DNA of 64,000 nt. Source: Trypanosoma brucei (taxonomy: Eukaryota). The notes beneath the pieces were generated by a model. The model had not been told where the DNA came from and made no database searches. It saw nothing but the letters and a program-made list of their open reading frames with translations. Made by a program: the position numbers and the translations under genes. The DNA lies in assembly GCA_000002445.1 (NCBI GenBank), contig CH464491.1, positions 1,568,001-1,632,000 on the forward strand, read 5' to 3'. Each line of letters opens with the position of its first letter. Within the stretch, counting starts at the first letter, position 1. Shown here piece after piece: positions 41,856-53,156 of this stretch.

Positions 41856-44800
41856 ATGTTTGAGAGTCTGTACGAACTCTTTTCGACGTCTCCAGGTAGA
41901 ACACCCTCCAATGTAGTTTGCAACAATGAGATGCCACCAGCGTTAATTGTGGTCATGCTTAAAGCTGATGAGCAGCGGTCACACACTTCACAGTCGGAGG
42001 GAGAGGGACGGAGGTTGTTGAACGGTTTGATGGCCGCCTACCCATCGTCCAATTACATGTTTGTTATCGATGCTGCAGAAAGTACTTCGGAGGTGTTTGC
42101 AGCGGTAACTGGAGAGTACAACTTGCTTCGTGAACTTTCTCCAAAATTCTGCTACGTGGTGTTTGCGGCACTTCGGGACCCCGAAGTGGTTGTTCCTTGC
42201 ACCAGCGTGTTTAACCCGGCGTGGGTCGGTGAGTTGCGTCGGATGTTGGATGGTTTACGTAACCCTCGTCACATGGTGGCAGAGTTACTGCTGCGTAAGG
42301 AATTGTGCATGCAGTTGGAGGGGCTTCTTCGGTTTACGGCGGAATGTCGATGGATAGGCGATGAATCGCTTTCTGCAAAACTTTCACGCCTGGTGGATTC
42401 CCGTGTCACTGATTTGAGCAGTAGTAAGAATTACTCCATGCCTTCCTGCGGAGGGCTGCAGGTTAGCTGTATTTCCATGCTCAAGGAAGATGAAGAAGCG
42501 GGTTCCCCTCCGCTAGTCCTCCAAACCGGGATTCGCATACGAGGCGTTGTACCCGACTTAACTAGGTCGTTAAGACTGTCAGACTGCAATGAACAAGAAT
42601 ATAGTCCCCCACTACTGCTCGTCGTTCTGCACGCAGGGGAATCTATTAGGGAAAATATCGTGGATGGCAGCGTTGGGCGGGATTCGTCGGTGCAGGAATT
42701 GGATTGCTTGTTACAGCAGTTAAGTTCTAGTGATGAAGTTTTTGTGTCGCTTGGTGGCTATGTGGTCGTTCCCCTATGCTCTGCCGCCGCGGCGAGGAAG
42801 CAGTGGCTCGATACAAAAGAGGTTCTGACAAGAAGGGTAACGTATGATGGTGCTGACTCCCATGCTCTAATTCGGGAAATGTTGACTCAGGCACTTCTCC
42901 CTTTGAGGAAATGGCACAGAAAGCATCACACTCCTGCGGAAGATGAAAAATCAAGTTCCCCAAGGAGCAGGGTAGCAATATTGTTTTACACACCTCAAGA
43001 ACCGTGTTCTGTGCACCAGTGTGTGCATTCGATTGTTCGTGAACAACTCGCTTTCCTTCAGGTGCCACTATTTTGTATCACAACTCCGGTTGGCGTTGAT
43101 ACCGCTTACAAACTACTAGATATCAGCAGTACGAGTGGTGAGCGTTGTATTTGCACCCTTGAAGCAAGTTGCACCGCCAATGTCAACCACGATAGCGAGT
43201 GTGGTGGTAAGGGTCAAGCGTGTTACGGGGTGCTGGGATCATCCACAGGTGAGCGAGTCGCCCAGGCGGCACTAACAGCAATTCGTAGCGTCACTCACCT
43301 TGGTGTTTCTGTCACCGTGCATTCTATCGACAACTCAAAAGAAGACACACGCTTCGAAGTTGGTGACCTACGCCAGGGTTTGGACACCACGGTGCTTATC
43401 TCTCGACCGGTGCAGAACCCGGATCGGGGGGCGTCTGCGAAGCACCAACTTACAATATTAGCTTATTCTGTTGATAAGAGCAGGTATGACATTGTACGTT
43501 TCATGCCTTCAGAAACTGTGAAAGAGGTGCCTTCCTCTGAGCACTCATGGTGGAGCCAGCTTCAAATTGCCGGGAGGTTGCTGAAATCCATGCCTTCCAA
43601 AGCACCCCCAAGTGTCTCACAGCTTGGAAACACTTTGATGCAACATTCTGAGGAGGTGCCATCTCTTGGGGGACTGGCCGAACAACAGCACAAGCTGGTC
43701 GAGTGGCTTCTCTCCAACTACGGTACACAAGAACTGGAGGGCACACCTTATACATTGGTGATTGGATGGTGCCCGTCCCCTTATATGGGCAACGGAAGCA
43801 CCGAAGAGGAGGACGGGTGGCCAACTAGTAGTGGGTACCTTTCAGCGTCTCCATGCATAGCGGACCCTTTGGTAGAGCTTCGGTGGACAAACTTTCCCTT
43901 CTGCGACGGCGCGCCGGTAACGACAATATCAGCGATCATAAGTCGAACGTTTCCCTTTGAGGCACTTGTGGAGAGTACTGCTTCCAACTCGCTCGCGCTT
44001 GAAACGCTGAGAAACGACTCTGCCGAAATCCGTCTCGCGTCCATGAAACACATCCCTGAACTGAGGGAGGCGCGGGCGCGCATCGTTGCATTTCTTAGCG
44101 TGGATACGTCGACTGGTGCCATGTCGCTACAACAGCTTGTGCCAGCGAAGACGGAAGACGATGTCAAAGGTGGTATGTTGCACACCTTTAGGTCACTTCG
44201 GTTACATCAAATGTACTGTGTGGTGCACCTCGCACTGCGATGTTCGCTTGACTCGTCGTTCTTCATGCAAAATGATGTTATCATTGCAGATGGTATTACA
44301 TTTATAACCCCAAGAGCAAGCGTACACGATGTAAGAGTTACTACCGTAACTCACTGCAGGGCAGATGTGGAGTGGAAGGGGACAGCAACATCTGTGAGAA
44401 TAGAATGTAAACCCATGAAATGGATCTCAACTCAAAAAAATAGTGAGCGGTCACCCGGCGGAATATCCGATGTAACAGATAGTGAAGTGGTTGGAGCAGA
44501 CGGTGCCACCACAATTGTAGAGTACTCTTGCGACGGGTTCCAAGCCGCGGTCGCGGGGCTACAACCCTTCACGCTATATCACCTGCGTGTGACGCCCATT
44601 GGGGATTCAACCCACGGTGCGATGATTAGGGAGAAACTGGAGGAAGGGGAAGCGTACTTTGCTACGTGTGTAGATGCAGGCGTCATCGATACCCTTAGCG
44701 TAGAATCCATCGTGCCAGATAGTGAGACACTGAAACTAACAGTTGCTCATCCCGTCCTTTGCAAAACAGCCGCCATTAGTCGCACACGCTCACTGGTACT

Positions 44801-47800
44801 CACAATAACTCCCACCATGTCAATGAGCAACTCTCTGGACAAAGAAAAGCCACTTCAAATGAGACGTAGGAAATTTTCTGAGGGCGAAAGCGTGGTGACA
44901 ACATTTACCTTACAGAAAGTGGAACGTGTACAAGTTTGCATTGAGTTCAACATGAAGTTGTGTTTCGGGCATGTTTACCTGGAAGAAACATCTAGTACCT
45001 GTAGTCACACGTGTGGTAGTGATGATAATGATGCGCAGTACATAGACGACAGTGGACAAGTGCGCGGCGTATGTGTGTGGTTTGCTAGGGGTGTGTCACC
45101 ATGGACAAAGGAGGTTGCGCTGTGTGGTAATAGCTCCCCCAGGTCGTTAAGTGCACCTCCCATGTGCTCATCGCCGACGCAACTTTTGGATGGCTACCGC
45201 ATCAGTCGTTCCGACACGCCGTTTGCTGAGATGCGTAGTGATTTCAAAGCTTCAAACGATCTTAAGGAACACTCCACAGAGGAGAATGTGGTGGTTACGG
45301 AAGGGAAGGAAGGATGTGGAGAAATGGAGTGGAGCGAGTCAAGTATTGTTTCAGTATCTCACGAAAAACGGTTATCAAAATATGTAGTGGATGACAGTGA
45401 CCCCAGCACCACCGGTGAAGCGACAAGGTCGTTGTATTGTGTCTTTTCGAAAGATCCCACATTCAGAGGAGTGCGTTTTTTAACGGACATGAGTTCTCAG
45501 GTGCTGTTAGCCAGTTTTGCTGTGGGTGGTAACAGTAGCGGATACATCTCGGCTGTGATCATGCCCCTAAATGTTTCAGTCGATAATCTTGACGGTGACA
45601 ACACCTCATTAAAAGTGAGTTACGCGCACGTTGATCGTGAGCGGCCGGTGACGGTAAAACTTGTTCAGCACCTCGAGCAACGGTACCAACGTGTCGGAAG
45701 AAAAACCATGCACTTATATGCTGTAACCGACGTTTGTTGCCGTAGCCGTGAGGAAGTGCTTGGGGTGAACGGTGTTAAAACTAAGAAAATGTTGCTTTCA
45801 TGGACCTGTGGCGCCCAACAGGAGGGGTCTTCTCTCTTCGTGCTTATAGGCAGCAAGAGATACAAACCGAAACCAAACAATACATTATTGATAGATTGCA
45901 ACGACACGCTCGTTGCAGCTCCTGTGTGCTTCTGTGGTTCTAACATCATCAAAGAAACATGTTCCATATACTTGGTTCCGCCACCTCCACCTTTATCGTC
46001 GCAATACTGCACAGTGAGGGCCGTAAAAGATGAAGCTTTGCATATTTTTATCACCGAGAAGTATTGCGTTCTATTGTATCGATGCCTTGCTTGTGTGAGT
46101 GATTTAATAATGGTGTTACTTCATGTGGGTGGTGACAACGCCACCGAACTTCCCTGTTCACAACAAAAATTGAGTGGTGGGGAAACGGGAGTACATCTGC
46201 AGGTACCGTTGGATGCAGTGGATCCGGAAAAAAACACAGTTGAGCTATGCGTCGAAGTTCGAGTTAGAAATTCTGCTTGTTGTATTGGGGACAACCCTTT
46301 AGTCTCGGATTGGAGGGATCGCACTGGTTTCGGCGGGAGTGGTAGCTCAAGTAGTTTGATCAGTACTAACATTTTGAAGGGGCGTCGTCAGCAACCTATT
46401 CTACTCATCCCGTGGAGCACCTCTGAATCTTTTGATGTACCTGTAGCATCCAGCACCTTGATCAAAAACCTTCAGGTGACCGAGCTCCACTCTACAAGAG
46501 CCAAATTATCGTGGACAACAGTTCCTTACAAGGAGACAGCGGACGAAAAACTTGGTGTGTTTTTGACGGTACAGTGTGCAGCGGCGGAGGGACATGTTAA
46601 GAAATACAAAGAATACGTCGTTTGCTCTGCACGATCTTTCCTTTTGCGCGGTCTCCTTCCTGCAACGCCATACCATGTCGAGTTGTCCCTGGACGGTGGA
46701 TGCCCACCCGGTCGTGTTGTATTTGTTACACCGCAGGATATGGAAGATAATGTGCTGCGCAAATTGATACCGTCAATTACGGCGGTGTGGGCATCACGAA
46801 GAGGAAGAAACTGGCAACACGTCATGAGGGCAGCTTGCGGGGGCACGGATGACGCGGAACAGCAGCGTTTCGTGCGTCTTCAATTGGATATTCCAAATGT
46901 GGAAAGCAAACACTGGACCGTATCCCCAAGTTCTGCACAAATTATAAAGGAGGAAATTAGCGGCTGTGGCACCTTGCGACTTGCAGTGACTGCCAAAGTC
47001 CAGGTACTACTTGTGGCCAAGTCGGGGAAGTTGCTGCAAATGTGGAGTACTGTAAGCGGGACCCAGAGCCAAACAGTGTCTTTTGCTTTTCCGATTTGTG
47101 GGGGAAATCCGGCTGCGAGTTGGCCTCATATTGAACTGAGAATGGACTCGTTTGCACAGTTTAGCCCAGCGGCAACGGAGGACGAAACAGGTGATGAAGT
47201 ATCCCCAAGCGTTGACCAAGACTCTTGGTCATTTAGTGAAAAAGACAAAATAAGTGACCTAAGAGCAGGCCACTTGGTTAGCCGGAAGCACCTCGGCGAT
47301 AGAACCAACTGTCCCTTTGCCAACAGCCATGTCACTGTGCACCTTGTTGGATGCCCTCAATTGATTAAGGTGGACGAAAACTGCTGTGTAGTTGAGTGGA
47401 GTGGTTCTTGTTCGGGTTACGCGATTCATTGGCGAGTTGGACCCTCGGGTGTCGTTAATACGGAACACATTGAGGCAGAGCGCAAACAAAAACCGAGCAT
47501 AACGGTTGATGTTTCAGCGTTGGATACGGTTGTGCTCCTTTTCTCTCTGCATGGGGCAGATTGTGCCTCCAACTGTGTACTCTTCGCTGTATTAGTCCCT
47601 CCAAAAGTCAGCAAGCAGATTGGCTGTTGTTGCGAAACGACACGAGGACTGTCCGTACCAACGTCACCTCGATGTTCCAACAAAGGATTGATAAAGGTGG
47701 ATTACACACGTGGGGGTCAACCCGGTTCTACCTTAACCGACGGTGAGTCTTTGGGACAGAACGGTGTAAGTGGTGTTAGCAGTGGACTTTGTTGCACTGC

Positions 47801-47948
47801 ATCCGTTGTTGATACCTCTAGTCTTGAGTGGCGGGAGGGCTTCAAGGGGTTGCTGAAGGATGAGGTTTGCTGCATGCTACTCCCGTTTCCTATGGAAGTC
47901 GTGTGGTTGAATCCTGTCGTGACAGCCTTCTACTCCCGTAGGACCTAA
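41856..47948 (+). CDS. Giant hypothetical protein (2030 aa), Cys-rich, no recognised domain
   Basis: ATG at 41856 (MFESLYELF). 6.1 kb uninterrupted ORF on the array strand. Many Cys residues scattered throughout, no transmembrane stretch noticed, no catalytic motif recognised. Antisense ORFs across it are short. Confidence 0.6.
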   Translation: MFESLYELFSTSPGRTPSNVVCNNEMPPALIVVMLKADEQRSHTSQSEGEGRRLLNGLMAAYPSSNYMFVIDAAESTSEVFAAVTGEYNLLRELSPKFCYVVFAALRDPEVVVPCTSVFNPAWVGELRRMLDGLRNPRHMVAELLLRKELCMQLEGLLRFTAECRWIGDESLSAKLSRLVDSRVTDLSSSKNYSMPSCGGLQVSCISMLKEDEEAGSPPLVLQTGIRIRGVVPDLTRSLRLSDCNEQEYSPPLLLVVLHAGESIRENIVDGSVGRDSSVQELDCLLQQLSSSDEVFVSLGGYVVVPLCSAAAARKQWLDTKEVLTRRVTYDGADSHALIREMLTQALLPLRKWHRKHHTPAEDEKSSSPRSRVAILFYTPQEPCSVHQCVHSIVREQLAFLQVPLFCITTPVGVDTAYKLLDISSTSGERCICTLEASCTANVNHDSECGGKGQACYGVLGSSTGERVAQAALTAIRSVTHLGVSVTVHSIDNSKEDTRFEVGDLRQGLDTTVLISRPVQNPDRGASAKHQLTILAYSVDKSRYDIVRFMPSETVKEVPSSEHSWWSQLQIAGRLLKSMPSKAPPSVSQLGNTLMQHSEEVPSLGGLAEQQHKLVEWLLSNYGTQELEGTPYTLVIGWCPSPYMGNGSTEEEDGWPTSSGYLSASPCIADPLVELRWTNFPFCDGAPVTTISAIISRTFPFEALVESTASNSLALETLRNDSAEIRLASMKHIPELREARARIVAFLSVDTSTGAMSLQQLVPAKTEDDVKGGMLHTFRSLRLHQMYCVVHLALRCSLDSSFFMQNDVIIADGITFITPRASVHDVRVTTVTHCRADVEWKGTATSVRIECKPMKWISTQKNSERSPGGISDVTDSEVVGADGATTIVEYSCDGFQAAVAGLQPFTLYHLRVTPIGDSTHGAMIREKLEEGEAYFATCVDAGVIDTLSVESIVPDSETLKLTVAHPVLCKTAAISRTRSLVLTITPTMSMSNSLDKEKPLQMRRRKFSEGESVVTTFTLQKVERVQVCIEFNMKLCFGHVYLEETSSTCSHTCGSDDNDAQYIDDSGQVRGVCVWFARGVSPWTKEVALCGNSSPRSLSAPPMCSSPTQLLDGYRISRSDTPFAEMRSDFKASNDLKEHSTEENVVVTEGKEGCGEMEWSESSIVSVSHEKRLSKYVVDDSDPSTTGEATRSLYCVFSKDPTFRGVRFLTDMSSQVLLASFAVGGNSSGYISAVIMPLNVSVDNLDGDNTSLKVSYAHVDRERPVTVKLVQHLEQRYQRVGRKTMHLYAVTDVCCRSREEVLGVNGVKTKKMLLSWTCGAQQEGSSLFVLIGSKRYKPKPNNTLLIDCNDTLVAAPVCFCGSNIIKETCSIYLVPPPPPLSSQYCTVRAVKDEALHIFITEKYCVLLYRCLACVSDLIMVLLHVGGDNATELPCSQQKLSGGETGVHLQVPLDAVDPEKNTVELCVEVRVRNSACCIGDNPLVSDWRDRTGFGGSGSSSSLISTNILKGRRQQPILLIPWSTSESFDVPVASSTLIKNLQVTELHSTRAKLSWTTVPYKETADEKLGVFLTVQCAAAEGHVKKYKEYVVCSARSFLLRGLLPATPYHVELSLDGGCPPGRVVFVTPQDMEDNVLRKLIPSITAVWASRRGRNWQHVMRAACGGTDDAEQQRFVRLQLDIPNVESKHWTVSPSSAQIIKEEISGCGTLRLAVTAKVQVLLVAKSGKLLQMWSTVSGTQSQTVSFAFPICGGNPAASWPHIELRMDSFAQFSPAATEDETGDEVSPSVDQDSWSFSEKDKISDLRAGHLVSRKHLGDRTNCPFANSHVTVHLVGCPQLIKVDENCCVVEWSGSCSGYAIHWRVGPSGVVNTEHIEAERKQKPSITVDVSALDTVVLLFSLHGADCASNCVLFAVLVPPKVSKQIGCCCETTRGLSVPTSPRCSNKGLIKVDYTRGGQPGSTLTDGESLGQNGVSGVSSGLCCTASVVDTSSLEWREGFKGLLKDEVCCMLLPFPMEVVWLNPVVTAFYSRRT

Positions 47949-48420
47949 TCTGTTGAGCATTTCTCCGTATCTTAACCAACGTGCAAGCAGGAACGACATT
48001 CTTAGACGCGTGAAAACTGACCTGATTTATTTTTCCCGTTTCTATTTCTTGTAGGGGTGGTGGAGGGCATCGTTGCACGTCACACATTATTTCACGTGTG
48101 TGGGCAATGTAACTTTGTTCCTCCGCATAGCTTATGTTTTGCTCAATGACCTAATTACGTACGTTTCCTCATTTGCACCTTTCCAACATTATTTTCTTAC
48201 GCGTTGTTATTTTTGCCGTTTCCACTGACTTCTCGGGTCTTGTGGAATTATTTTATTGATTTTGTTCGGGTTTGGGGGACATCTTTTGTGAATGTTCATG
48301 ATCCAAAGGTGCCTAACACATTTCCTATTCACTCTCCTCTATTTTTAGGGATGTTCTAACACCCCTTCCACACCAATGCGCATAGGAAACATATTTGTGT
48401 ACGTATAATTAGTCGCGACT

Positions 48421-48506
48421 CTTTTTTTTTTTTTACTTGTCTCATTTTCCCTGTTCGCTAGCTCTCACCGCTTAGTTTCGTTGTCATCTCTTTTCCTTCG
48501 CTATAT
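48421..48506 (+). promoter_or_regulatory. Polypyrimidine tract; candidate SL-acceptor region upstream of mtRNAP
   Basis: cttttttttttttttacttgtctcattttccctgttcgct...ttgtcatctcttttccttcgc, with AGs at ~48459, ~48473 and ~48524. Which AG is used determines which ATG (48513/48597/48642) starts the protein. Confidence 0.45.
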
Positions 48507-48512
48507 TTGTGT

Positions 48513-51500
48513 ATGTGTATGACAGTTGTGCATGACGATCCTATTACTTGTTGCCATCTTTACTCCGCTTCCACCCCTGTTCCTTTTATTGCTTCAATGG
48601 CTAATGCTAAAGAATTAAATTTTGTTTGGCACCGCCAGGTAATGCGGCGGTTGAGTCTGGCACCGATAAAGTGGTCGGCCATTGCGCAGCGGTGGGGCAC
48701 ACGTGGCACTGACGTTCCTAGCCGTGCCAAAGGAGCAATAAAATCCCCAAAGTCGAGGAAGTCACGCCTTCCGTACGTGGAGGTGGGGGAGCGGACCGAT
48801 CGAATGAAGGAGTTCGTAAGCAGTGGTACGGATGACAACAGTGGTGATAGTGACAACAACCATAACAGCGTTAAGAGTATAAACAATACCGACTGCAGGA
48901 ACAAGGGCACAGATGGCGGTGGAGAAATTGATATGGACACCGTAGCAGGAACTGACGCCTTCACGCCAACTGTAGATATGGAAGAAGGCTATGGAGCTCC
49001 TGTTATGGCAACAACGGGCAGCACATCCAGTGAGAGTGTGCTCTCTGTTATTGATGTGTTGTGCGACGACCTCTTCTCCTGCAAAACTGACGTGCTGAAA
49101 TCATTCGCACGTACACGCTCGGTATCTGGATCAACAAAGTCAGAACTCGTCATGAATCTTATTGACCTCGCTAATCGTGAGGCTCACGGAGAAAGTCAGG
49201 ATCTCAGTATCACGAAACGAGTGCTAGGGGATGTCTTCAACGAAGAAGTGCGTGTGAGTGGCGTGCGCTCGCAATGGACCAACAAATCACTTGAGGCCTC
49301 CCATATTGAGATGGCGTGTGATAACCATCTGAAGTTTGAAGCAATGAGTTACACACAAAAGACACTTATGGTGCGTCGAAACGCCTCAGAATCATCGCGG
49401 GTTCTACGTAAGCTCATACGTCCCTTTCAGCAGGACTACAACCGAGTAGCCGAAGCGGCTGTGGGCGGGGTTTTTCGTAACTTCAAGGCGGAAGCTGATC
49501 AGTTGGTTAACTCTATGATGGCGTCGGAAATAGTCACTCCTTTCTCCTCTTTCCTTGTCTCCTACGTGCGTTTTGCGACGTCAGGGAACCTGCTGACGCG
49601 GACAAACGTGATTGAGCGTTTGGAGCAACTGGAACTTGTGCAGATCGCAATGGATGAGGACAGTGACGCGGTACTACAGCGCCTTATGGCCCTTCTTGAT
49701 GACGTTGTAGCGGAGGTGGAGCGGCGGGCACTTTGCTTCGGCGGAAAGCGCACATCATGGGGAACAGAAACACCTGAAGTGCTGCGTTGTTCCATCCAAG
49801 CCTTTAGTGACAGCACCGCTCAGCAGCATGAAGATCTCGGTGAGCGTGTCCCAGCGTGGGTGCACGATTTGGTCCGAATGTTCAATAACTGGGAAGCCAT
49901 TGTACGAACGGATATCCCTGTCCTGGAGGACGTACCGCGTTACGTGTTTGATTGCATCCTCAGCGGGGTAGTTTGCTATCACTTGCTTCAGAAGATATAC
50001 GGTGATATTATTTCTCCCACCGATGTTCCGCCCACAGTACGGGGGGCGGTGAAGCGCGCCATGGAGGCGCATTTCAAAGATGAGGAAAAAGCTGGTCACG
50101 CACTAGCAAAATTATTTGCTTATGTGCAGGCACCCGGTGACTCCGGTGTTGTAAAAGCGGAGTTCTTTCCCGCAGTTCTTTCCCAAATGCAGGGTGCCTT
50201 TCATGATGTTGGGCAAAGCACACTTCACAATGTCCGCACGGCAATTGTATTGCGGGAAATATGTGCTACGGTATCCCGGTGCACCCGCACTTGCGGACTT
50301 TTTCACATGCTGGTTAAACTCACAGAGGACTTGAGGTTTCAGTTCCGTTTCAGCACAATATTTAAGAAGCTTAACGGAAGAGATCGCACGACAATTCGTA
50401 CCAAATATAGTATTAACATGGTGAAGACGTTAGAGTATTTTGAGCAAGAGTACGCCGTGACGCCTACCTCCACGAAGGCAGTTGGATTTATTGTTATATT
50501 ACTGTTGCACATGTCCATGTGTAGTGGAGCTGCTTCAGGACACGGTACCAAAGCTGTGCTCGAACGCTATATTAGTGTCACCAACAAGGAGGAGTTTAGC
50601 ATAATTTCAATCTCGGACCTGGAGGCGACGCATGTCCGAGACTTGCGCGTTGCCTTCCCTCCGCAGCTTTCCTATAACTCATGGCTTCACCAGTCGGATA
50701 CGAAGGATAAATCCGTTTATAACGTGCTTCCTTCAGTTGCGGTGAAAGGGTCAACAAATCAAGCTATGATTATCTCACAGGCGCCGATGATGAAGGCTTT
50801 AGATGCGATATCACGTGTGCCCTGGCGAATTAGCAAATATATGCTCCACGTGCAGGAAGCCATTGTTCGTGAAGGCTACGGTTTTGGAAAGATACGACCA
50901 GCATTTTATCCATTGCATTACTGTGCGAAGAGCCGTGGTGACATTTCCTATGAATCAACAGGGATGGATGACGACGACGATAAAACTGAGGTGTACAACC
51001 TTCAGCAACGTCGTGAGTACGAACTTCAGCAAGATGAAGACTGGAAAAACCTTTCAGAGTTGCGCAGTAACCGCATTCACTATCTCCAAGCCCTTCGTCA
51101 AGCGCGCTCGCTAGTTCAGTTTTCGCACATTTACTTTCCCAACAGTATGGACTTTCGTGGTCGTATGTACCCACTTCCCGGTCGGTTGAACCACACGGGT
51201 TCCGACCCATTCCGTGCGTTGCTTGAGTATGCGGAACCGAAACCTCTGGGGAAGGAGGGTCTCTACTGGTTGAAGGTCCACTTAGCCAACAAGATGGGAA
51301 TGAGCAAGCTGTCATTTGATGAACGTGTACATTATGTCAACGAGCATATCGATGATGTTGTGTGCAGCGCTGAGCAACCATTGTACGGTGATAAATGGTG
51401 GCAAGAGGCGGCGGAACCCATGCAGTGCCTAATGGCATGCAAAGAGCTGGCTGATGCACTTAAATGCTCGCAGGGGCCGGAGAACTTTTTATCGCGTATT

Positions 51501-52466
51501 CCTGTCGCCGTTGACGGTAGTTATAACGGTCTGCAGCATTATTCGGCCATTGGTCGGGATGCATTTGGTGCAACGCTGGTAAACTTGGTTCCAAGCGAGC
51601 GGCCGGCCGATGCGTACACAGGTATCTTAAAAGAGATGATGTCTTCAATCAAAGCAGATGCGGAACGCGACCATCCAGTGGCTCAGCGGTGTCTTGGGAC
51701 AGGTAAAGGGCAAGACCGTGATCATATCAAACGCAAAACGATTAAGCGACCCATTATGACTCAAGTGTATGGCGTAACAGGATACGGCATGTCTGAGCAG
51801 ATACTGGATGAGTTGGTAAAACAGAATAAAAACCACGGGCTTTGGACGTCGACTGACATGCGGGAGATGGCGGATTATCTCCGCGAGAAGGTGCTGGAAT
51901 CACTTGGTATTACGTTTCGCGAGACGCAAAACTGCCGACGCTGGATTACCGACGTGACGAATATAATTTGGGAAGTGCAACCCGCTGAGCTTCGTACCGC
52001 CCTCTGCTGGACGACACCTCTCGGACTTGTCGTGCGGCAACCATATAAGATGCGCAAGGAGATGATGATATTTACAGTACATGGTTGCGCACGTGTGCCT
52101 GCCAACGCATTTTCAGCAGCTAGCCGAAAACAGCTTACAGCTATCGCACCCAACCTTATTCACTCACTAGATGCCTCCCACCTCGCCATGACGGCAATAG
52201 AAATGCAAAACCTTGGTCTTTCTATGATGGCGGTGCATGACAGTTATTGGACGTACGCCTGTGACCTTCCAACTTTGAGCCGAGTACTTAGAGAACAGTT
52301 TGTTACCCTTTACGGTAAGTACGATCCACTGTGGGAGCTAAAGGAGCAATGGGAAGAAGCGTACTTCATGGACCTCCGTCGCCACGGTAAGGTCCTTCCG
52401 GATCCTCCGAAACGCGGGGATTTGGATCTTAACGTTGTCCTAAACTCCCCATATTTTTTCTCTTAG
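48513..52466 (+). CDS. mtRNAP: Mitochondrial single-subunit (T7 phage-like) DNA-directed RNA polymerase
   Basis: Palm-domain motifs of T7-like RNAPs in the C-terminal half. Motif A AVDGSYNGLQHYSAIGRD (T7: DGSCSGIQHFSA). Motif B KRKTIKRPIMTQVYGVTGYG (T7: RSVTKRSVMTLAYGSKEFG). Motif C AVHDSYWT (T7: HDSFGT). Track start 48507 is TTG; candidate ATGs at 48513, 48519, 48597 (MANAKELNF) and 48642 (MRRLSLAPIKW, presequence-like). About 430 aa N-terminal extension precedes the conserved core. Confidence 0.9.
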   Translation: MCMTVVHDDPITCCHLYSASTPVPFIASMANAKELNFVWHRQVMRRLSLAPIKWSAIAQRWGTRGTDVPSRAKGAIKSPKSRKSRLPYVEVGERTDRMKEFVSSGTDDNSGDSDNNHNSVKSINNTDCRNKGTDGGGEIDMDTVAGTDAFTPTVDMEEGYGAPVMATTGSTSSESVLSVIDVLCDDLFSCKTDVLKSFARTRSVSGSTKSELVMNLIDLANREAHGESQDLSITKRVLGDVFNEEVRVSGVRSQWTNKSLEASHIEMACDNHLKFEAMSYTQKTLMVRRNASESSRVLRKLIRPFQQDYNRVAEAAVGGVFRNFKAEADQLVNSMMASEIVTPFSSFLVSYVRFATSGNLLTRTNVIERLEQLELVQIAMDEDSDAVLQRLMALLDDVVAEVERRALCFGGKRTSWGTETPEVLRCSIQAFSDSTAQQHEDLGERVPAWVHDLVRMFNNWEAIVRTDIPVLEDVPRYVFDCILSGVVCYHLLQKIYGDIISPTDVPPTVRGAVKRAMEAHFKDEEKAGHALAKLFAYVQAPGDSGVVKAEFFPAVLSQMQGAFHDVGQSTLHNVRTAIVLREICATVSRCTRTCGLFHMLVKLTEDLRFQFRFSTIFKKLNGRDRTTIRTKYSINMVKTLEYFEQEYAVTPTSTKAVGFIVILLLHMSMCSGAASGHGTKAVLERYISVTNKEEFSIISISDLEATHVRDLRVAFPPQLSYNSWLHQSDTKDKSVYNVLPSVAVKGSTNQAMIISQAPMMKALDAISRVPWRISKYMLHVQEAIVREGYGFGKIRPAFYPLHYCAKSRGDISYESTGMDDDDDKTEVYNLQQRREYELQQDEDWKNLSELRSNRIHYLQALRQARSLVQFSHIYFPNSMDFRGRMYPLPGRLNHTGSDPFRALLEYAEPKPLGKEGLYWLKVHLANKMGMSKLSFDERVHYVNEHIDDVVCSAEQPLYGDKWWQEAAEPMQCLMACKELADALKCSQGPENFLSRIPVAVDGSYNGLQHYSAIGRDAFGATLVNLVPSERPADAYTGILKEMMSSIKADAERDHPVAQRCLGTGKGQDRDHIKRKTIKRPIMTQVYGVTGYGMSEQILDELVKQNKNHGLWTSTDMREMADYLREKVLESLGITFRETQNCRRWITDVTNIIWEVQPAELRTALCWTTPLGLVVRQPYKMRKEMMIFTVHGCARVPANAFSAASRKQLTAIAPNLIHSLDASHLAMTAIEMQNLGLSMMAVHDSYWTYACDLPTLSRVLREQFVTLYGKYDPLWELKEQWEEAYFMDLRRHGKVLPDPPKRGDLDLNVVLNSPYFFS

Positions 52467-53156
52467 TGACGGCTGAATGATAGCACATGCAGTGAGCATC
52501 TACCATACGTGCTTCCAAATCTCATCATGCTTCCCTTTTATTCGTGTGTTTCAGATGTGACCCTTTCGTGTGGCAAATAATGCCCCTTTCCCCCTTTTCT
52601 CACCTTATCTTTCAACTTCGATATTAGAAACTCGCAGATTACAAAGTGTGTCACCAGGACCCTGCGAAGCGCTCCTCAGCCCTTCTGGATGTGCATATAA
52701 TGAGGCAATGCCGGCATTTACTATGATTATCGTGGGATGTCGATGAAGGCTTTTCCCTGTCGATGGTAAAAATATGCAATAACAAAGTGGGAGTGCGATA
52801 CTGCTTAAAACAGATGTTGTATTCACGCGTACGCCGTTGGCACTTCATGATATGTTTCAAATGCTGCTGATTCACGTTAACTCGCATTGATTTAATTCTT
52901 CCCTTTTCTTTTTTAGGGGAGTTGTACAGCTAATAAATTACGTCTGTTTGTACAGTAGCGTAGCTGTATGACCCGCCTTCGTGCTATGTTGTGCTCTTGT
53001 GTATATATGTTTTTGTTTTTGGTATTTTTGGTGTTTGTTCGTTGGTGTGTTTGCCACAGAAGCACAAGGTTGCATTTGTTTCCACAATCCAATTTACTCT
53101 ACATTTCCGGCCCTTAACTCTGCGCCTCTAGTGTAAAGGGGTCGACAGACGTTGCG

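Follow-up and report, generated by a model that had tools for sequence, protein, structure and literature searches.

The single-subunit RNA polymerases of the phage T7 type include the T7 enzyme itself (NP_041960; PDB 1CEZ, 1QLN and others), human and other mammalian POLRMT (PDB 3SPA, 4BOC, 6ERP and others) and yeast Rpo41 (PDB 6YMV and others). The corresponding enzyme of Trypanosoma brucei, named mtRNAP and encoded by Tb927.11.5780 (Berger et al. 2026; PMC13623095), is located at the kinetoplast DNA (kDNA) disc and is essential in both life stages. It is needed for transcription of maxicircles and of minicircles, which yield guide RNA (gRNA), and for the maintenance of maxicircles but not of minicircles (PMC13623095). 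Whereas POLRMT has TFAM and TFB2M as partners, mtRNAP is complexed with the unrelated, kinetoplastid-specific transcription factor mtTF1, which still co-purifies with recombinant delta130 mtRNAP (PMC13623095). MTRNAP-TAP was assigned to the matrix and to a complex of about 900 kDa (bioRxiv 10.1101/350256), and mtRNAP is not mentioned in the Mol Cell 2026 complexome paper (PMC13631411). The difference between parasite and host transcription machinery bears on drug-target thinking and is not a discovery of the present analysis. What is added here, from a stretch of 64,000 nucleotides of T. brucei DNA (contig CH464491.1 of GCA_000002445.1; hereafter the window), is a confirmation of the start codon of the mtRNAP gene, a splice signal inside an apparent upstream open reading frame (ORF) and a measured domain map of the protein.

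The coding sequence (CDS) lies at 48642-52466 of the + strand and comprises 1274 codons followed by TAG. Its product is 100% identical over 1274 amino acids (aa) to UniRef Q95WT2, the DNA-directed RNA polymerase of T. brucei. The gene was reportedly studied earlier by Clement & Koslowsky in 2001, Grams et al. in 2002 and Hashimi et al. in 2009. It is the already known and already characterised nuclear gene for the T7-like mitochondrial RNA polymerase of T. brucei, and it differs in nothing from the published one, as protein, chromosomal coordinates and annotated start are the same. Table S3 of Kolev et al. 2010 lists Tb11.02.3530 as 'mitochondrial DNA-directed RNA polymerase' with an ORF of 3825 nt at 1616642-1620466 on Tb927_11_01_v4 (PMC2936537), and subtracting 1,568,000 from these coordinates gives exactly the CDS. 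Since the same offset also places a second Table S3 gene, Tb11.02.3570, on an ATG...TAA ORF in the window, the window is positions 1,568,001-1,632,000 of T. brucei TREU927 chromosome 11. An initial annotation, made from the nucleotides, had taken the gene for a nuclear-encoded T7-like kinetoplastid mtRNAP, and both this identity and the Pfam match described below bear that out.

Sequence comparison identifies the protein as a single-subunit, T7-like RNA polymerase of the POLRMT/Rpo41 type in which every catalytic residue is intact. The RNA_pol family PF00940 matches aa 867-1243 with 431 bits (E=7e-129), compared with a gathering score of 22, and also matches all of the 12 kinetoplastid orthologues. 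In the PDB the strongest sequence matches are human POLRMT (E=2e-87), yeast Rpo41 (E=2e-85) and T7 RNA polymerase (E=3e-58), so that mtRNAP is nearer to the mitochondrial enzymes than to the phage one, and the profile search gives the same ranking. With T7 the protein shares thumb, palm, fingers and identical catalytic residues. Aligned to T7 gene 1, the residues R425, D537, R627, K631, Y639, G640, H811 and D812 of the phage enzyme correspond one by one to R841, D958, R1031, K1035, Y1043, G1044, H1199 and D1200, and the catalytic aspartates of motifs A and C (D958 and D1200) are invariant in the 12-orthologue alignment. Motifs A, B and C were found where the initial annotation had placed them, save that motif B ends slightly earlier, and they fit the PF00940 profile. 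A Pol I-like right-hand fold was found, and when an AlphaFold2 model of aa 131-1274 was searched with Foldseek, the top 62 PDB matches were all POLRMT, Rpo41 or T7 RNA polymerase, with E values down to 1e-21.

Further homologues of mtRNAP were seen in Logan/EukProt data, with lengths of 1625-2066 aa. Three of them (P0018, P0054 and P0055) share 75-78% and a fourth (P0053) 67% identity with the T. brucei catalytic domain; the BLAST coverage of 37-56% points to apparently large insertions or extensions. The T. vivax L005 gene (GCA_021307395.1) carries at ~2960-2975 an in-frame stop in place of the W of the conserved 'PAWVHDLVRMF' and is therefore annotated as a truncated product of 869 aa. Over the 400 codons upstream the identity to T. 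brucei is otherwise 82%, and the stop, in an essential gene, probably reflects a mistake in the assembly.

The reading frame of the T. brucei gene is open from TTG 48507 or ATG 48513 to TAG 52464-52466, with an upstream in-frame stop (TAG 48459), and it contains four in-frame ATGs within 130 nt (48513, 48519, 48597 and 48642), as had been pointed out in the initial annotation. Independent comparative and transcript-mapping evidence identifies ATG 48642 as the correct initiator, the one that the initial annotation had preferred for its presequence-like MRRLSLAPIKW. When the 12 kinetoplastid orthologues are aligned, ATG 48642 coincides with the first codon of the annotated protein in each of the six Trypanosoma species. 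These proteins open with MRR (MWR in T. rangeli), after which comes a conserved RW.xRG. Because annotations can be copied between genomes, genomic DNA was compared as well, for T. congolense, T. grayi, T. cruzi, T. melophagium and T. vivax. In these five species an in-frame stop lies 2, 2, 5, 13 or 33 codons upstream of the ATG of MR(R/C), with no other in-frame ATG in between, and the 45 extra codons are thus a peculiarity of T. brucei. An open stretch of 60 codons before 48642 carries no significance by itself, since 8.7% of composition-matched shuffles are likewise open, owing to the pyrimidine-rich sequence.

Among the candidate N-termini only the one that begins at 48642 is basic and resembles a presequence, with a net charge of +4 in its first 20 aa, compared with +4 to +5 in the orthologues and -2 for a start at 48513. 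Its first acidic residue stands at position 24 (positions 14-27 across the set including the orthologues), a pattern that by charge count is kept among the Trypanosoma orthologues. The numbering of the published constructs also fits a count from ATG 48642. Berger et al. used residues 31-1274 and 131-1274, for which the primers code GAIKSPKS and ESVLSVI (PMC13623095), and G31 (GAIKSPK) and residue 131 (ESVLSVI) fall at these places in the present translation. Among Leishmania genomes the start-codon annotation of the gene is inconsistent; near-identical orthologues (the P0017 cluster) are annotated with 1299, 1417, 1501, 1508 and 1603 aa.

The transcript data point to the same codon. Kolev et al. 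place the mRNA 5' end of Tb11.02.3530 at window ~48601 in Table S3, and their Table S1, a complete list of genes with spliced-leader addition inside the ORF, does not contain it (PMC2936537); addition downstream of 48642, which the initial annotation had named as evidence against this start, is thus not recorded there. For Tb927.11.5780, the 'Filtered mRNA length' in Antwi et al. 2016 is 3889 nt, which equals the ORF plus 64 nt (PMC4845500). The 5' untranslated region (UTR) therefore has at most 64 nt, and ATGs 48513 and 48519 are excluded from the annotated mRNA. The gene is not listed in the Nilsson 2010 spliced-leader supplements or the Vasquez 2014 ribosome-profiling supplements. We judge the three upstream ATGs to be non-initiating, because none of them is downstream of the mapped 5' end and none has a counterpart in other trypanosomes.

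The choice of start had been tied by the initial annotation to whichever AG after a tract at 48421-48506 receives the spliced leader. That region is indeed rich in pyrimidines (80%, compared with 48% in the CDS). When polypyrimidine tracts (PPTs) are called by the definition of Kolev et al., it corresponds to two of them, 48419-48459 and 48476-48520, which precede AGs 48460, 48474 and 48524; these AGs may be minor acceptor sites. The first tract may serve minor upstream splice sites and/or the coupling of polyadenylation of the upstream gene. A longer tract, which had been overlooked, follows at 48539-48595, and the AG at 48611 beyond it is the likelier acceptor. From the sequence, this AG is most probably the main spliced-leader acceptor, because it lies 15 nt after the longest PPT, has the offset of -31 from the ATG at which the first AG after the tract is also found in T. 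congolense, and is the nearest AG to 48601. An out-of-frame ATG at 48604-48618 opens an upstream ORF of four codons (MLKN*), which the mRNA would include only with a 5' end literally at 48601, and would lack after splicing at AG 48611.

At the 3' end, Kolev et al. flag an alternative 3'UTR processing site for the mtRNAP gene and map a 3' end at 53002 (PMC2936537). The ORF-plus-64-nt mRNA, by its length, implies an isoform with a very short 3'UTR. This fits the two mRNAs differing by about 500 nt that were reportedly described by Clement & Koslowsky in 2001.

Starts further upstream would require longer mRNAs. Translation from ATG 48513 or 48519 would presuppose splicing at AG 48460 or 48474 and would give a precursor of 1317 or 1315 aa with MRRLSL internal. 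No in-frame stop interrupts 48462 to 48642, the tract that contains the T13 run makes a good PPT, with AGs 0 and 14 nt after it, and several acceptors per gene are common in trypanosomes (PMC2936537). Both ATGs would, however, have to be in the mRNA 123-129 nt upstream of 48642, where the annotated UTRs total 64 nt, and the mapped 5' end lies more than 80 nt downstream of them. The other Trypanosoma species have no upstream in-frame ATG, with stops 2-33 codons before MR(R/C), the shuffles described above leave little weight to the open frame, and the resulting N-terminus has a net charge of -2 and is without an amphipathic segment. We regard these starts as very improbable. Just as improbable is initiation at ATG 48597 (MANAKELNFVWHRQVMRRL..., 15 aa longer, peptide MANAKELNFVWHR) on an mRNA spliced at AG 48524. 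This codon is in frame, AG 48524 comes 3 nt after a 45-nt pyrimidine-rich tract, and the approximate published 5' end at 48601 is just 4 nt away. In the one case that can be calibrated, however, the approximate coordinates of the table fall upstream of the likely acceptor and not downstream of it, and a coordinate that lies upstream favours AG 48611, which leaves ATG 48597 out of the mRNA. Splicing at AG 48524 would also give a 5'UTR of 116 nt to 48642, compared with 64 nt for the UTRs in total, a sum that is reached only if 48597 initiates and the 3'UTR is essentially nil. The extension is without orthologous counterpart, and the glutamate that it puts at position 6 would be unusual in a presequence. 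ATG 48642 is thus retained as the start in what follows.

Numbered from this start, the protein falls into parts that differ in conservation. Identity to Bodo, Leishmania, Papus and Perkinsela is 8-19% for aa 1-130, 20-52% for aa 131-410, 26-59% for aa 411-790 and 54-84% for aa 791-1274. Profile alignments set the beginning of the region shared with other single-subunit polymerases at residue 716 against T7 (residue 316), 678 against vole POLRMT (residue 617) and 645 against a further homologue, P0056 (residue 484). In hhalign, residues 716-1274 align with T7 316-883 at a probability of 100% and residues 678-1274 with POLRMT 617-1199. No polymerase came up when aa 640-800 were searched against the PDB with phmmer, and the homology of this segment emerged only with a 29-sequence profile in hhalign. 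The extension of ~430 aa proposed by the initial annotation was a fair estimate of the excess over T7, for which the measured offset is exactly 400 aa. A long region before the catalytic domain is, however, no peculiarity of kinetoplastids, given that the part preceding the thumb is only ~60 aa longer than in mammalian POLRMT (677 compared with 616 aa). In overall build mtRNAP resembles POLRMT, in which a presequence and a long N-terminal region of helices, both of them putative in mtRNAP, precede the T7-like C-terminal domain. They differ in that the N-terminal 645-677 aa of mtRNAP are without detectable sequence similarity to POLRMT; N-terminal homology to Rpo41 is likewise undetectable, and the promoter-binding N-terminal domain of T7 is unrecognisable by sequence in mtRNAP.

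What is specific to the lineage is the sequence of the N-terminal region, as the initial annotation had held. An exhaustive HMMER search with a profile of aa 125-830 against 1.84 billion representative proteins found just 15 proteins, the named ones being from Leishmania, Perkinsela sp. and Papus ankaliazontas, and word-indexed homology searches with the N-terminal profile found two further sequences only. As far as such profiles reach, the block of ~515 residues at aa 131-645 is pan-Kinetoplastea, including Prokinetoplastina, and undetectable elsewhere. RPOL_N (PF14700) was found in none of the 12 kinetoplastid orthologues at E<=10, and Pfam annotation lists it for vole POLRMT and P0056. This domain is typical of the POLRMT/Rpo41 family, not defining for it, and its fold may be present in mtRNAP. 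Weak Pfam signals in the N-terminus for ComJ, RasGEF_N and HEAT_GCN1_C were far below cutoffs and were dismissed.

The label 'PPR-like' (pentatricopeptide repeat), which the initial annotation had attached to the N-terminal region, is unsupported. No Pfam family of PPR or tetratricopeptide repeats (TPR) matched the 12 orthologues at E<=10, either as full proteins or as isolated N-terminal pieces. Consensus PPR/TPR probes aligned to the N-terminus by hhalign reached a probability of <=0.7% (0.2% for the PPR probe), and self-comparison of the profiles of five N-terminal segments for tandem repeats of ~35 aa gave <=0.7% for each. Against vole POLRMT the N-terminal profile reached 0.08%. Structure prediction gave a first AlphaFold model (aa 125-830, 8 sequences) with a pLDDT of 47 and a pTM of 0.37, whose best Foldseek match (E=1.3) is noise. 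The second (aa 131-1274, 27 sequences) has a global pLDDT of 65 and a pTM of 0.46, and in it aa ~240-660 are all-helical with a pLDDT mostly of 75-95.

Two opposite readings of this block have been considered, and both appear doubtful to us. According to one, aa 131-645 would be a strongly diverged POLRMT PPR domain together with a T7-like promoter-binding N-terminal domain, and 'PPR-like' would be right at the level of the fold. In position the block matches the part of POLRMT that precedes the thumb, and it is close to that part in length, it is predicted to be nearly wholly alpha-helical, and the modelled chain and POLRMT are aligned by Foldseek over ~1150 columns, nearly both full chains, including the structured N-terminal region of POLRMT. 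Because the alignments have this span, kinship to the POLRMT N-terminal domains at the level of the fold is possible; their TM score is about 0.3, and we consider this reading unlikely in view of the sequence comparisons above. The other reading, to which we would give similarly little credence, is that aa 131-~645 might be a distinct, lineage-specific helical module and not a diverged PPR plus promoter-binding domain, beginning with a SAP-like DNA-binding helix-loop-helix (aa ~147-177) and serving as a docking and kDNA-targeting platform for the kinetoplastid-only mtTF1. A hand-written SAP consensus aligned by hhalign in the expected register with a probability of just 7%, Pfam SAP had no match in the mtRNAP N-terminal pieces, and no claim is built on it. 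Were this reading true, promoter recognition would have been solved here independently in a polymerase of the T7 type.

Whatever its fold, the block is the first region in which to look for those contacts with mtTF1 and kDNA that set parasite transcription apart from that of the host. Since the first 130 residues are not needed for mtTF1, the contact with this partner would rather involve aa 131-645 or the catalytic domain. The initial annotation had suggested that the N-terminus may interact with kDNA replication factors. Contact with a partner is a reasonable expectation; the known partner is, however, mtTF1, which binds without aa 1-130.

We hold with high confidence an account in which this locus is the published mtRNAP gene, translated from 48642 after splicing most probably at AG 48611, and codes for a three-part protein. 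The gene belongs to a same-strand polycistronic unit, which fits the observation that all 17 ORFs of at least 250 aa in the window are on the + strand, and its mRNA would be produced by trans-splicing at AG 48611-48612 after the 48539-48595 tract. A 29-nt 5'UTR would then lead to ATG 48642 as the first AUG and to a precursor of 1274 aa. Its basic N-terminus (MRRLSLAPIKW...RW.TRG) would act as a matrix-targeting presequence, presumably removed by cleavage, and is part of a variable, low-complexity tail (aa 1-130). The predicted all-helical block (aa 131-~645) sits where other mitochondrial RNA polymerases have their N-terminal extension (NTE), PPR and N-terminal (promoter-binding) domains, and aa ~645/716-1274 form a canonical catalytic domain of T7-like thumb, palm and fingers. 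In the literature, mtRNAP is described as transcribing maxicircles and minicircle gRNA genes, as needed for maxicircle replication and as working with mtTF1. Of this account, the analysis directly shows the identity of the gene, its motifs, the conservation of the start, the domain boundaries and the taxonomic range of the N-terminal block.

Some points weigh against this account. The mapped 5' end at 48601 is not preceded by an AG. It and the 5' end of the second Table S3 gene in the window (59314) each follow GG and lie 12-30 nt upstream of the first AG after the PPT; because they follow GG and not AG, the Table S3 coordinates must be approximate, and the choice of AG 48611 is a probable one. 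Since most genes use several splice sites (Kolev et al.; PMC2936537), there may be minor longer mRNAs that contain the upstream ATGs. The fold of aa 131-645 is tentative, because both models are low in global confidence. The features of the locus are collected in Table 1.

Table 1. Window coordinates of the mtRNAP gene, its transcript signals and the parts of its product
Feature	Position	Strand	Basis or remark
First polypyrimidine tract, 41 nt, 88% Y, with T13 run	48419..48459	+	Followed by AG 48460 and AG 48474 (0 and 14 nt after)
Upstream in-frame ATGs 48513, 48519 and 48597, judged non-initiating	48513..48599	+	Comparative and transcript evidence
Longest polypyrimidine tract, 57 nt, 81% Y, inside apparent upstream ORF	48539..48595	+	PPT definition of Kolev et al.
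AG, likeliest spliced-leader acceptor (inferred)	48611..48612	+	15 nt past the 57-nt tract; -31 from ATG
Inferred 29-nt 5'UTR, without ATG	48613..48641	+	Acceptor AG 48611; agrees with annotated UTRs of 64 nt in all
CDS of mtRNAP, Tb927.11.5780 / Tb11.02.3530	48642..52466	+	ORF, protein identity, Kolev coordinates
Putative mitochondrial presequence, aa 1-30 (MRRLSLAPIKWSAIAQRWGTRG...)	48642..48731	+	Charge; published construct starts at residue 31
aa 1-130, variable, low-complexity, 8-19% identity outside Trypanosoma	48642..49031	+	Alignment; not needed in vitro for the binding of mtTF1
aa 131-644, helical block conserved across Kinetoplastea, no homologue detected elsewhere	49032..50573	+	Alignment, HMMER, model
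aa 147-177, possible SAP-like helix-loop-helix (weak lead)	49080..49172	+	hhalign
aa 645-1274, homologous to other single-subunit RNA polymerases	50574..52463	+	Profile alignments
DFRGR (T/DxxGR motif; R841 = T7 R425)	51150..51164	+	T7 alignment
PF00940 RNA_pol domain, aa 867-1243	51240..52370	+	Pfam
Motif A, DGSYNGLQH (D958 = T7 D537)	51513..51539	+	T7 alignment
Motif B, RKTIKRPIMTQVYG (R1031, K1035, Y1043 = T7 R627, K631, Y639)	51732..51773	+	T7 alignment
Motif C, HDS (H1199, D1200 = T7 H811, D812)	52236..52244	+	T7 alignment
Long-form 3'UTR to mapped mRNA 3' end, 536 nt	52467..53002	+	Kolev 2010

The upstream neighbour of the mtRNAP gene is an ORF of 2030 aa at 41856-47948, whose orthologues show a faint fn3 signal. 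In T. grayi, T. cruzi and T. vivax, too, the mtRNAP gene is directly preceded by an orthologue of this ORF, and synteny is thus kept across Trypanosoma.

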